In this document: piece by piece, positions 734 to 58,892 of the stretch
How positions within the stretch are numbered: the stretch's first letter is position 1
Layout: the number at the start of each line of letters is the position of its first letter
Assembly: GCA_964016885.1 (NCBI GenBank)
Contig: OZ024742.1
Location: 203,546,001-203,610,000 of the forward strand
Reading direction: 5' to 3'
Length of the DNA stretch: 64,000 nucleotides
Source: Eledone cirrhosa
Lineage: Eukaryota
The notes under the pieces: model-generated
The model's database searches: none
Told to the model about the DNA's origin: nothing
The model's input: only the letters and a program-made list of their open reading frames with translations
Made by a program: the position numbers and the translations under genes

Positions 734-873
734 TCATTGTTTTACGATCGTTTCAGACGGTTAAATCGATCATGATAAATCGATATATTGACTAACTGAT
801 AATGGTTATGCCACCACATATTACTACTTTCAATATTCCAGATCCATCTCACCGTCTTCCTCAGAAACAATGA
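734..873 (-). ncRNA. Type I hammerhead ribozyme with ~100-nt stem II
   Basis: Minus strand: UCAUUGUUU-CUGAGGA-AGACGGU...ACCGUCU-GAAA-CGAUCG-UA^AAACAAUGA. 9-bp stem I, 7-bp stem II base, palindromic stem III (ACGAUCGU). Confidence 0.85.
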
Positions 874-1649
874 CCTATAATTTTTATTTGCAAGTTATAT
901 AAAGAGGCTGAAACGAAAAAATTGGATAGGTGGACCGAGAAAAATAAATAAAAGAAAAGAATATTAGGATTCTCAATCAAAGATGAAATATATGTAGAAT
1001 AAACAAGTAAATAAATAGATGAACTCCTTGATCTGTAATCAAACAGACGATCAGACTTAATGTGTGACCGAAGACATACACACTTATAGAGAGAGATAAT
1101 GGTCGGATATATACGTATCAACAGCAACATAGAATTGATAAATGTGTCCGAACCCGGAAGAGCCGAACTCCCACTGTCATCGCCACTATCTCTCTTCCTC
1201 CCCATCTCTCTGTATTATGAGCAAATGGGGTCCCACATGCTGGTCACCCCACAGCCCAAGCGGACAAAATGGAGAAGGCGTTTCCTCAGAGGATGGTAAG
1301 GGAGATGTCCTGGAAAAGCCATTCCATCTCGCAAGGCTCACACCTGCGGCTGGCCAGCTCAGTGGTAAATAAGGAGGTAGCCCTAGAGCTAAAGACACCA
1401 GAAGTCTCCACTGCTAGGGGCACGACCGCAAACCTGTAGGAGATCGACCGATACTTGGATAATTTACCCTCCTCAGCAGAAAAATATCCAACCATTATTC
1501 CTTCTTATAGAGAGGTTCATACAAGGGGAGATAAAGAGACCAAATCATATAATTTGTTGCTGACCGTTTTACTTCCCACCATATACGCTTACATCTGCAT
1601 ACATATTTCTACACTTAAGCTTTTATGCATATATACACTTATACACACC

Positions 1650-1772
1650 TGTGTGTGTGTGTGTGTGTGTGTGTGTGTGTGTGTGTGTGTGTGTGTGTGT
1701 GTGTGTGTGTGTGTGTGTGTGTGTGTGTGTGTGTGTGTGTGTGTGAGTGTGTGTGTGTGTGTGTGTGTGTGT
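1650..1772. repeat. (GT)n microsatellite
   Basis: Direct reading; source of the spurious VC/TH ORFs. Confidence 0.95.
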
Positions 1773-1775
1773 GAA

Positions 1776-1872
1776 GTCAATATATCGATTTATCAGGATC
1801 AATCAACCTTCTGAAACGATCGTAAATCAATGAATTAATGAAGCACCAATCTTCACCTTTTGTTTTATTTTC
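1776..1872 (+). repeat. Diverged, 5'-truncated inverted copy of ~695-793 (3' half of the 734-873 hammerhead family)
   Basis: agtcaatatatcgatttatc...ctgaaacgatcgtaaa...tgttttattt matches the reverse complement of 695-793; the CUGANGA half is absent. Confidence 0.75.
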
Positions 1873-1974
1873 TTCTGCTTCGTCCATTTATTCCAGAGAG
1901 AAATTTCTTTTTACCGTGCTGTTTCTTTTCTTATGCCCCACCCCCCTCTCTCGCTCTCTCATTCTGACATTGTA

Positions 1975-2012
1975 TCTTCTGGTGAAGGACTAATGTCCGA
2001 AACCTTAAGACA
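1975..2012 (+). ncRNA. Degenerate hammerhead relic
   Basis: CUGGUGA (A6G)-A-GGAC-UAAU-GUCC-GAAAC; stems I and III poorly formed. Confidence 0.45.
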
Positions 2013-56828: not shown

Positions 56829-57867
56829 ACGTAAGATTTTCTTATATATTTTTTATCGTCTTCTCTATATTTCCTCATTCCCCCATCCCTTCCTAATCCT
56901 TCCACCCCAGTTCTCCTTCTTTGTCGTCGTTCTTTCCACCTTCTCGCCCACCCCGAGGCAGCCCTTCGGTCCTCCGTAGCCTCAGTACCCCCACCCCCCA
57001 TTCTATGATAGAATTGGCCGACTCCGCTTTTTATAGCAGATGTGCTAGACCCCAGATACTTGCTTTCTTATCTGATTGCTGCCCCATTTCCGTGATTTCT
57101 AGATTTCTTAGTGGTATCTCTGCTTTAGTTTCTCGTATATCAGAATTTTTTTTTTTGGTGTGTGTGTGTGTGTGTGGGGGGGGGGGGGGGAATTGATTTT
57201 TGTATTAATTTTTTCTTATATATCGTAGAGCATTTATGTAGTTTGCATTAGAATTTATGTAGTGTAGCGGTACTCTTATATATCGTATTAGTATTCATTT
57301 TCGGGATTCTGAATTAATATTTCGTATTAGTTTCGGGAATCTGAATTATTATTTCGTATTAGGTTTTTTTTTTTTTTTTTTTTTTTTTTAATATTTTGGC
57401 CCCCTACTTGTTGACCTGTCATTGTAAGATAGATTAGGTCGAGTACTACTGACTAATAACATCCTTTCACTACAATCTCGTATTTAGTATCCCGCCCCAC
57501 CTATTAAACTTTTCTATAGTTTAGCAGTACCAGTGAGAGATTTGATGATTGTGGTAGGGGAATAGTAACCAGAAATTGTGTTTATTTATATTTTTAACAT
57601 TCTTATTTTTCTATATAGATTTACTCCATATAGATCTACTTATTGTTTCGACTTCCTCCCTCCCCCTCCCCCTCTTGACCTCTTATCCTTAGGATTCTGC
57701 TGTAGTCGTCACTTTCAACGCACGACTGCGTTTCCTCTCCCTCTTTCTTCTACTGGCAAGTTCAGCTACCCCTTCCTTCCACAAAATGCAATGATAGAAT
57801 TATGTGTCTCAACAACAAACTTTTGACCAATCTTTGTGACAATCACTTTTACCATATATGGAATATT

Positions 57868-57963
57868 ACCCCCTGAGAAGCTCGGCTATTCATTTACCAG
57901 GATAAAAATGTTCATTTAGTCCAGAATTAGCCGTCGAAACGGCTTGAGCTCAGCCGTCGGGGT
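57868..57963 (+). ncRNA. Hammerhead of the 47270 family, here with a C3/A8 mismatch
   Basis: ACCCC-CUGAGAA-GCUCGGCUA..UAGCCGUC-GAAA-CGGCU-UGAGCUC-AGCCG-UC^GGGGU. Confidence 0.75.
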
Positions 57964-58169
57964 CCTACTCGTTCCTATTACCCACTCTACTACCCTAAGT
58001 ATTGAGTAATTTGGTGCGTTATGGTCCATCTGGTTCCTTACCACATTTCCTTCGTTATATATATATATATATATATATATATATATATTTTATATATATA
58101 TATATATATATATATATATATATATATATATATATATATATATATATATATATATCATTATTATATATA

Positions 58170-58321
58170 TCATTATTTCTGAAGACGGCGTATATATGTG
58201 TTGGTATGTATATTTAATCTTGATAGTTTGTATAATTTTGTATAATTTTGTACATAGATCTGTTGAATATGCATGCCAATTCTAACACATATATATCCTA
58301 GAAACGATCGTTAAATAATGA
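58170..58321 (+). ncRNA. Type I hammerhead with 115-nt stem II hairpin
   Basis: UCAUUAUUU-CUGAAGA-CGGCGUAUAUAUGUGUUGG..CUAACACAUAUAUAUCCUA-GAAA-CGAUCG-UU^AAAUAAUGA. Confidence 0.8.
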
Positions 58322-58533
58322 ACTTTTTTTGTTTAATATAAGGAATTGTTTATTCATTATTTGTTTAATATTTTATATATATATATATATATATTTGATA
58401 TATATATATATATATATATATATATATATATATATATATATATATATATATTTGATATATATATATATATATATATATATATATATTTGATATATATATA
58501 TATATATATATATATATATATATATATATATAT

Positions 58534-58892
58534 TAGAAAGTGAGAGTTTTTTTTACAAAATGAAAAATAACCGAGGTGTCCTATACAAGTGAAAGTATAA
58601 AGAAAAAAATATGAAATCGAAAATGCAACTGGAGTCTTGTTTTTAAAAAAATATATATATTTATTTCGTTCCTTTACCGGTTTCGCAGTTCTTCTGCTTT
58701 TCAAAAGTAGAGTTGAGATGGAGTATCTGTGGTTTTTCTCACATCTGATGTGAGAAAAACCAGACACTCCATCTCAACTCTACTTTTGAAAAGCAGAAGA
58801 ACTGCGAAACCGGTAAAGGAACGAAATAAATATATATATTTTTTTAAAAACAAGACTCCAGTTGCATTTTCGATTTCATATTTTTTTCATTA
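58534..58892. mobile_element. Fold-back insert in (TA)n with U3-A8 hammerheads (58783-58818 +, 58672-58707 -)
   Basis: Axis at 58746; CUU-UUGAAAA-GCAG-AAGAA-CUGC-GAAA-CCGG-UA^AAG. Confidence 0.85.

Follow-up and report, generated by a model that had tools for sequence, protein, structure and literature searches.

We identified 33 folds of the type I hammerhead ribozyme in a 64,000-nucleotide stretch of the Eledone cirrhosa genome (assembly GCA_964016885.1, contig OZ024742.1, positions 203,546,001 to 203,610,000; hereafter the window). Judged by their sequence and arrangement, these folds are probably hammerheads from the terminal repeats at the 3' ends of Penelope-like elements (PLEs) of many families and of their non-coding retrozyme-like derivatives, which lie tail-first at (TA)n microsatellites and would give rise to inverted insertions by twin priming. 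The window was analysed together with a genome sample of 137 regularly spaced 10-kb stretches (1.37 Mb), taken from 23 contigs of the 3.0-Gb assembly.

Folds were sought with our own type I descriptor, comprising stem I, the core CUGANGA or UUGANAA, a stem II of at most 130 nt, GAAA, stem III and UH, and tolerating a C3-G8 or U3-A8 core pair, an imperfect stem II base (mismatch or bulge) and a minimal or full helix III. At a score of at least 23, a cut-off chosen once the window scores were known and by which the weak matches at 22445 and 40079 (scores 15 and 18) were removed, 18 folds on the plus and 15 on the minus strand were retained, in all of which the core, GAAA, UH and stems I-III are arranged as in type I, compared with a mean of 0.23 and a maximum of one in 30 local dinucleotide shuffles of the window; the first settings of the descriptor had given 33 unthresholded matches versus means of 0.36 in 25 global and 0.40 in 25 local shuffles. 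The folds form 16 sequence clusters, two further clusters are present in the window as decayed copies only, and 11 decayed homologues were found in total. The estimate of a first-pass annotation made from the sequence alone, about 30 hammerheads from more than a dozen families, is thus borne out, as is its expectation that shuffled controls would differ (fewer than one fold per shuffled window). Of the 21 starts it had listed, 18 pass the descriptor (734, 9057, 36931, 37689, 38188, 40434, 46659, 47270, 47471, 48588, 49002, 51255, 51523, 52589, 53068, 58170, 58672 and 58783), together with the mirror at 47420 and all ten array copies, whereas 9715 (stem III mismatch), 24857 (decayed stem II) and 57868 (C3-A8 core mismatch) fail, yet are clear decayed members of families that pass elsewhere. 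The U3-A8 family folds at 7949, 23222, 23747 and 24315 were absent from its list.

Across window and sample the core pair was C3-G8 in 182 cases, U3-A8 in 26, C3-A8 in four and U3-G8 in two, which indicates covariation, and eight decoy cores with one base changed yielded zero to four folds each versus 208 with the true core. Helix III is minimal in 24 of the 33 window folds, full in the other nine, and minimal in 177 of the 208 folds of window and sample combined. A stricter first descriptor had returned 13 window folds only, because it disallowed the U3-A8 core, mismatches at the stem II base and a long stem II. Stem II inserts of 60-110 nt at 731-876, 48999-49107, 52588-52686 and 58169-58322 lie beyond the limits of standard descriptors. 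Among the best 150 of 279 Rfam matches in the window, a hammerhead model was hit by the ten array copies only (HH9, 37.7 bits, gathering score 52), and the gathering score was reached by no fold; the other Rfam matches, mostly microRNA models on hairpins and microsatellites, were treated as chance. Minimum-energy folding of ten motifs gave z below -2 in two and above -2 in eight. Additionally, hammerhead-like folds with a CUAANGA core were noticed at L058:2043, L130:4953 and L110:3493, two of which are mutually similar and may represent a variant-core family.

The sample contained 175 folds, corresponding to 128 per Mb (bootstrap 94-166), versus 2, 1 and 2 in shuffles. This extrapolates to approximately 0.38 million folds in the genome (0.28-0.50), or approximately 0.68 million when decayed homologues are counted, and the folds of window and sample together form 42 clusters. 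Counting arrays and inverted pairs once, we obtained 0.90 insertions per 10 kb in the sample (variance 1.52) and 2.8 in the window, which is about three to four times the sample density (resampling P approximately 0.002, regional correlation being ignored). Given the density in the sample, the window differs from the rest of the genome in richness and not in kind, the load being genome-wide, and a local hot spot was rejected; the same families are scattered throughout the genome.

Same-family folds on opposite strands form 30 tail-out pairs versus one convergent pair, and the distance from the hammerhead cut site to the (TA)n tract is bimodal within each family, e.g., 18 and 98, 22 and 93, or 56 and 155 nt. 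One short and one long end were found in all 29 scorable pairs of the 30 (24 scored by arm alignment, four by distances and one from sequence; L070, at a region edge, was excluded), the short-end arm stopping at the near site and the long-end arm carrying a tail of approximately 30-155 nt that reaches the far site, while about half of the pairs would be mixed if ends were chosen independently. The same holds for 18 of 18 scorable loci in a set of 20 fetched from one coding family (the ORF set; ORF, open reading frame), of which 17 had been picked for long open frames and three as visible inverted ORF pairs; L180 and L186 have no partner in view. Contigs of a public sequencing run (X1) contain (TA)n loose ends at both end sites of a 467-bp unit, so the short and long ends are not an assembly artefact. 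Furthermore, the arms are 98% identical within an insertion and 90% between insertions, being more similar within in 26 of 27 cases. In one family, three loci share an identical centre and the differences between loci are symmetric inside each of them, from which it follows that the mirror was made anew at each insertion. A near-perfect hairpin centre (spacer of at most 10 nt) was present in 12 of the 30 pairs versus 1.5 expected by permutation, and centre spacers reach 1.1-1.3 kb. Of 13 pairs that could be oriented, eight have unpaired extra sequence on the short-end arm and five on the long-end arm. In the ORF set, the long end belongs to the longer arm at 11 loci and the short end at six, the arms of the remaining locus being equal.

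The association with (TA)n is one-sided. Within 250 nt on the 3' side, (TA)5 or longer was present for 126 of 145 terminal folds of the sample, versus a fraction of 0.29 at random positions (maximum 0.40 in 300 draws), and on the 5' side for 57 of 148 (39%), a figure due in part to mirror copies. Little or no enrichment was seen for (CA)n (22 of 145 versus a null of 0.12) or (GA)n (12 of 144 versus 0.05), so the enrichment next to (TA)n proposed at first pass holds genome-wide, is TA-specific and is 3'-sided. In the window, 19 of 24 terminal folds have such a tract within 250 nt on the 3' side (null 0.20) and three more at 279-300 nt, while the folds at 37688 and 38186 have no perfect (TA)n tract nearby. 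The further claim that most spacers of 150-400 bp between (TA)n tracts are hammerhead-bearing was overstated: such spacers contain a fold or homologue in nine of 18 cases for the window and in 84 of 266 for the sample, and a passing fold, decayed homologues apart, in six of 18 and 41 of 266. Seen from the tracts, 282 of 1130 merged sample tracts have a hammerhead-bearing end pointing in, as compared with approximately 8% expected from density alone. Tracts at insertion ends are 10-588 nt long (median 39), and by eye short ends often overlap the tract by a few TA-like bases.

Four Penelope-like coding fragments are present in the window, at 38294-39171 (+), 49491-50783 (-), 54190-54485 (-) and 54612-56825 (+), and a hammerhead lies 3' of every one. 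None of the four matches anything in Pfam; the homologue P0003 has matches to RVT_1 and GIY-YIG, both under the Pfam cut-off. A genome protein search with the product of 54612-56825 gave 81,544 first-look candidates, which is not a copy number, and the 117 that were scored are, the window's own copy excepted, 84-90% identical to the query. Many of the 20 loci of the ORF set have ORFs of 717-740 amino acids between direct repeats, in the order pLTR-ORF-pLTR (pLTR, pseudo long terminal repeat), the single ORF encoding an RT (reverse transcriptase) followed by a C-terminal endonuclease of GIY-YIG type. Their proteins carry DKT, RW(R/K) and CxCX5C motifs as well as CxxC and CxH near the end, the last cysteine of the linker being lost in some copies including that of the window. 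The Hydra clade is defined by DKT, RWK-like and CxCX5C motifs (PMC8557442), hammerheads and insertion into (TA)n are described for nearly all of its families (PMC8557442), and File S1 of that paper lists an octopus Hydra family with (TA)n preference (Hydra-1_Obim). Insertion at (TA)n with a hammerhead near the 3' end was likewise found here, and, as assigned by these motifs, the coding partners are Hydra-clade PLEs wherever the ORF was read. Hydra-like coding sequence occurred in 21 of the 137 sampled stretches and made up 1.3% of bases. The first-pass statement that PLE termini carry hammerheads therefore applies to this genome, where several families sit behind Penelope-like ORFs for RT and endonuclease.

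Other clusters form non-coding tandem arrays with periods of 310, 460-483, 467 and 568 bp. As in non-LTR retrozymes (LTR, long terminal repeat), each unit contains a single type I hammerhead. The arrays are arranged in inverted orientation around a centre, lie between (TA)n tracts and have short and long ends like the Penelope-like insertions, which agrees with the non-autonomous parasites suggested in the first-pass annotation. The 467-bp unit also occurs on contig C1, where inverted arrays were found at four places among 40 scored of 305 candidates, and the 467-nt unit folds as a highly paired circle (z -8.6). A 497-nt contig in the public run X4, corresponding to 42562-43058, equals the 467-bp unit plus 30 and has a closed-loop form, which tandem DNA and circular RNA would explain equally well.

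How such insertions might arise can be outlined as follows. The Hydra RT-endonuclease likely placed both coding and non-coding elements at (TA)n. The protein, probably dimeric, would cut both strands of a TA target, one cut end priming reverse transcription at the near site and the other at the far site, both 3' of the hammerhead. An intact hammerhead in both arms implies that the template crossed the cut site uncleaved or re-ligated; the template RNA would thus have kept the hammerhead junction, being uncleaved, multimeric or a circle after re-ligation. The two cDNAs of the same polarity may then be joined by their far ends, in many cases where the element has a short palindrome of its own, to produce a tail-out inverted pair with one short end, one long end and near-identical arms, and circular or multimeric templates would produce the inverted tandem arrays. 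Since (TA)n would be left on both sides of each insertion, new targets would be created and insertions would become clustered. Selection may keep the hammerhead in active master copies, most genomic copies being passive relics. The near-strict pairing of short with long ends favours two cDNAs primed from both cut strands. This is in line with an anole element that was described as starting RT at two internal sites, as cutting and extending both strands and as a predicted dimer (PMC11167929). A bolder version, in which this genome, with several hundred thousand folds of at least 40 families, has the largest hammerhead load found reported, every inverted insertion arose by coordinated twin priming, probably from one RNA, the enzyme also rolls round circular retrozyme RNAs and a cycle of splitting and expansion is a main source of (TA)n, is put forward as speculative and somewhat doubtful.

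Several points weigh against twin priming by a Hydra enzyme. A Hydra-like coding match within 2.5 kb upstream, in any copy, was found for 12 of the 42 clusters only, so the link to Hydra is direct for those only. In the in vitro system of the anole element (PMC11167929), the RT starts used were the same on the two strands, no hammerhead was needed, and RNA ends were not found at the hammerhead cut site. A small older pair in L178, from a related subfamily, has both ends past the short site and approximately 20 nt apart, and is a possible exception to the end rule; pairs could be scored only with both hammerheads intact, which covers about a third of terminal folds, and in three cases few votes decided the orientation of the spacer. 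The arm identity could also stem from gene conversion between inverted repeats. Finally, no true paralogous empty site was found among the fetched loci for 44 TA-flanked inverted insertions; two apparent ones were dismissed as recurrent neighbours or an internal palindrome, and four sequencing runs over 51380-53270 contained no joint cleanly skipping an element. The first-pass picture of (TA)n tracts as landing pads for a diverse community of PLEs and their non-autonomous parasites stands with regard to the community and the link to TA, while the strict sense of a landing pad, a long tract that predates insertion, is conjectural, as no true empty site was found.

An alternative is that elements insert at short TA motifs and that insertion itself, or later change, creates or lengthens the tracts, which would be compatible with twin priming as well as with fold-back of a cDNA. 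The wide range of tract lengths, the few TA-like bases shared with short ends and the excess of tracts entered by a hammerhead-bearing end all fit such an origin, which we consider a possibility worth keeping but not the probable one: about three quarters of the tracts have no such end, and (TA)n is given as the preferred target of Hydra families, one from octopus among them (PMC8557442, File S1).

The hairpin centres raise the question of whether the inverted arm might instead result from self-priming or fold-back of a single cDNA, with endonuclease trimming stripping the tail from one side, as offered in PMC3846280 and PMC8557442. This would account for the 12 near-perfect centres among 30 and for the near-identity of arms within an insertion, and palindromic junctions are taken as self-priming in PMC3846280. 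However, the longer arm lacks the tail in eight of the 13 orientable pairs and in six of the 17 unequal pairs of the ORF set, a first strand begun at the short site cannot supply a tail by self-copying, and spacers extend to 1.1-1.3 kb. We therefore regard fold-back as an unlikely explanation, and rejected its simple form, in which the first strand has the long end, as the sole mechanism because the longer arm is so often tail-less.

Whether the folds act on transcripts is a separate matter. The first-pass annotation expected any read-through transcript to meet many self-cleavage sites; such cleavage is doubtful for most copies and possible for a minority, the doubt arising from the minimal helix III of 24 of the 33 window folds. 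The minimal type has low cleavage activity as a monomer (PMC4209133, PMC7229834), and one of nine retrozyme dimers tested was cleaved in a recent preprint (10.64898/2026.07.22.740005). That the folds form a host-selected device for cutting read-through transcripts from either strand, as their distribution over both strands and the full helix III of nine folds might suggest, is highly improbable: presence on both strands follows from inverted insertion, the same families are scattered genome-wide, most window folds are of the minimal type, only one of the nine dimers of the preprint cleaved, and no host gene was recognised among window ORFs of at least 120 amino acids (Pfam was run on nine of them). 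Chance matches in AT-rich repeats, or inverted pairs produced by assembly, are refuted almost beyond doubt in spite of the permissive descriptor, the several folds that differ from the minimum-energy structure (z above -2 in eight of ten) and the unreached Rfam scores, since shuffles and decoy cores yield approximately 1-2% of the fold count, there are families with the compensatory U3-A8 pair, each of the two arms has its own fixed end site and public-run contigs contain the families, both end sites and opposite-strand joints.

At the left of the window, a type I hammerhead with a stem II insert of approximately 105 nt lies on the minus strand at 731-876 (stems I and II in the minimum-energy fold, z -2.9), followed by a solo copy of the 568-bp-unit family with a U3-A8 hammerhead at 7949-8045 (+) and by 8999-9126, where a hammerhead found with the descriptor at 9056-9126 (+) and a truncated mirror found by homologue search at 8999-9060 (-) lie between (TA)n tracts. 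A decayed hammerhead of an approximately 466-bp retrozyme-like family was recognised by homology at 9713-9758 (-). The insertion at 22951-24554 is an inverted partial tandem of the 568-bp unit with (TA)n at both sides, a long left and a short right end and U3-A8 hammerheads at 23222 (-), 23747 (+) and 24315 (+). Next to it, at 24605-24963, is a decayed inverted pair of the commonest cluster of the genome sample, with hammerhead remnants at 24734 (-) and 24855 (+). Three minimal hammerheads found with the descriptor follow at 36929-36988 (-; (TA)n 39 nt away), 37688-37734 (+; an extra base after A9) and 38186-38236 (-), the last at the left end of the coding fragment 38294-39171. This fragment, a broken Hydra-like piece of RT thumb and endonuclease identified by its coding match, forms part of 38294-40597 (+), in which it is followed by a hammerhead at 40433-40512 and then by (TA)n. 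The inverted retrozyme-like array of the 467-bp unit, delimited by repeat analysis, occupies 40613-45363 with 4.1 units on the minus and 6.0 units on the plus strand and ten identical hammerheads, its left end being long and its right end short.

Further right, 46568-47375 is an inverted pair of Hydra-element 3' ends with U3-A8 hammerheads at 46658 (-) and 47269 (+) and ends 96 and 18 nt from the cut site, and 47412-47607 is an inverted pair with a perfect centre, full helix III hammerheads at 47420 (-) and 47467 (+) and ends at 18 and 93 nt. A minimal hammerhead lies between (TA)n tracts at 48588-48633 (+; descriptor). The 5'-truncated Hydra-clade element at 48822-51407 (-), recognised by motifs, contains the ORF 49488-50783 (C-terminal part of the RT, linker and endonuclease) and U3-A8 hammerheads at 48999 (-) and, inverted, 51252 (+), with ends of 186 and 57 nt. 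With the descriptor we also found a full helix III hammerhead with a long end at 51521-51577 (-), the hammerhead 52588-52686 (-) of an inverted pair at 52464-52868 whose decayed mirror at 52728-52825 (+) came from homologue search, and a long-stem-II hammerhead at 53075-53150 (-), 3' of the minus-strand endonuclease fragment 54190-54485. A near full-length, frameshifted Hydra-clade element spans 54516-58056 (+), with coding sequence at 54612-56825, a C3-A8 mismatched hammerhead at 57867-57964 and its long end at (TA)n. This element begins at a (TA)7 tract (54505-54518), exactly at the far end site of its family, where tandem copies carry a short native ATATAT, and the enzyme may cut or prime at its own repeat. 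The descriptor also returned a hammerhead with a very long stem II insert and a weak stem II base at 58169-58322 (+), and an inverted pair at 58534-58890 with U3-A8 minimal hammerheads at 58670 (-) and 58781 (+) and a centre spacer of 1 nt. At 20964-21117, 28462-28598, 35675-35830 and 47823-48057 there are small palindromes or end fragments that are flanked by (TA)n and contain no passing hammerhead; these are probably insertions truncated before or within the hammerhead.

Besides PLE-related sequence, the window contains a broken Helitron-like Rep/helicase region (59973-63791, with a Pfam match to PIF1 helicase in the frame 62349-63161), a decayed hAT transposase (11736-13768, with a Pfam match to the dimerisation domain in the frame 13196-13768) and a decayed LINE-like (long interspersed nuclear element) endonuclease/RT at 30190-32160 that was recognised by eye and gave no Pfam match in the one frame checked. 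Minisatellites at 6213-7078 (14/28/42-bp period) and 32743-33175 (41-bp period) are unrelated to the hammerhead families.

Compared with known systems, the coding elements agree with the Hydra clade (Craig et al. 2021, PMC8557442) in their single ORF, the DKT, RWK-like and CxCX5C motifs, CxxC and CxH around the end of the endonuclease, terminal-repeat hammerheads, insertion at (TA)n, an inverted 5' copy and a tail at one end. The clade is known there from 21 Repbase families plus a few; here, Hydra-like coding sequence occurs in 21 of 137 stretches and one protein query gave the 81,544 first-look candidates. Tails are approximately 30-155 nt here versus 30-40 in the Hydra elements of that paper, and every scorable pair has a tail on one arm and none on the other, versus "often" at one end there. 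An optional tail on one inverted pLTR is also described in PMC3846280. The folds resemble the minimal PLE hammerheads of Cervera and de la Pena (2014, PMC4209133) in being type I, in the small palindromic helix III, the extra base after A9, the U3-A8 covariant, the opposite-strand pairs 100-700 bp apart and the many families per genome, and differ in the 50-110 nt inserts in stem II, or the full helix III, of several of our families. That study gives approximately 2,000-9,000 hammerheads per genome versus 0.3-0.5 million here, figures that are not strictly comparable since our descriptor is more permissive. The highest published count that we found is 126,247 motifs in the axolotl, and a squid genome paper gives 235 hammerhead loci (PMC6962438); in a 2026 octopus repeat annotation (PMC13282606) the word ribozyme is absent from the main text.

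The tandem arrays share their non-coding units (310, approximately 466, 467 and 568 bp) with the type known as non-LTR retrozymes (Cervera and de la Pena 2020, PMC7229834; Li et al. 2026, 10.64898/2026.07.22.740005), which are considered dependants of PLEs in both papers. The retrozyme papers argue from co-occurrence and relatedness, whereas here the insertion signature, known from DNA alone, points to mobilisation by PLEs. In vitro, the tail of the Poseidon element of Anolis carolinensis is likewise set by a pair of RT starts 3' of the hammerhead, and AT-rich DNA is cut and extended on both strands (Frangieh et al. 2024, PMC11167929). Poseidon belongs to a different clade, however, and its starts lie inside the ORF, whereas ours lie in the 5' leader (in one family, 18 and 98 nt beyond the cut site); no difference in start use between strands was seen there, and the accessible text of that paper does not report the pairing of starts per insertion. 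In summary, pLTR hammerheads, (TA)n targeting by Hydra, inverted pLTRs and the one-sided tail have each been published, and the scale and the near-strict short/long rule were not found reported: our literature search, which lay mostly outside subscription papers and met varying descriptors, returned neither a hammerhead load of comparable size nor a counted pairing rule.

The origin of inverted, tailed PLE insertions is named as an open question in both PMC8557442 and PMC11167929. The near-strict pairing of ends across approximately 15 families provides a sharp prediction for the existing in vitro system and argues against simple fold-back, and the retrozyme-like arrays with the same signature are evidence for mobilisation by Penelope-like enzymes. 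Moreover, Rfam scans miss nearly all folds of this kind, and a sizeable class of small repeats in this genome would appear to be Penelope-derived, although easily misfiled as short interspersed nuclear elements, miniature inverted-repeat transposable elements or unknown.

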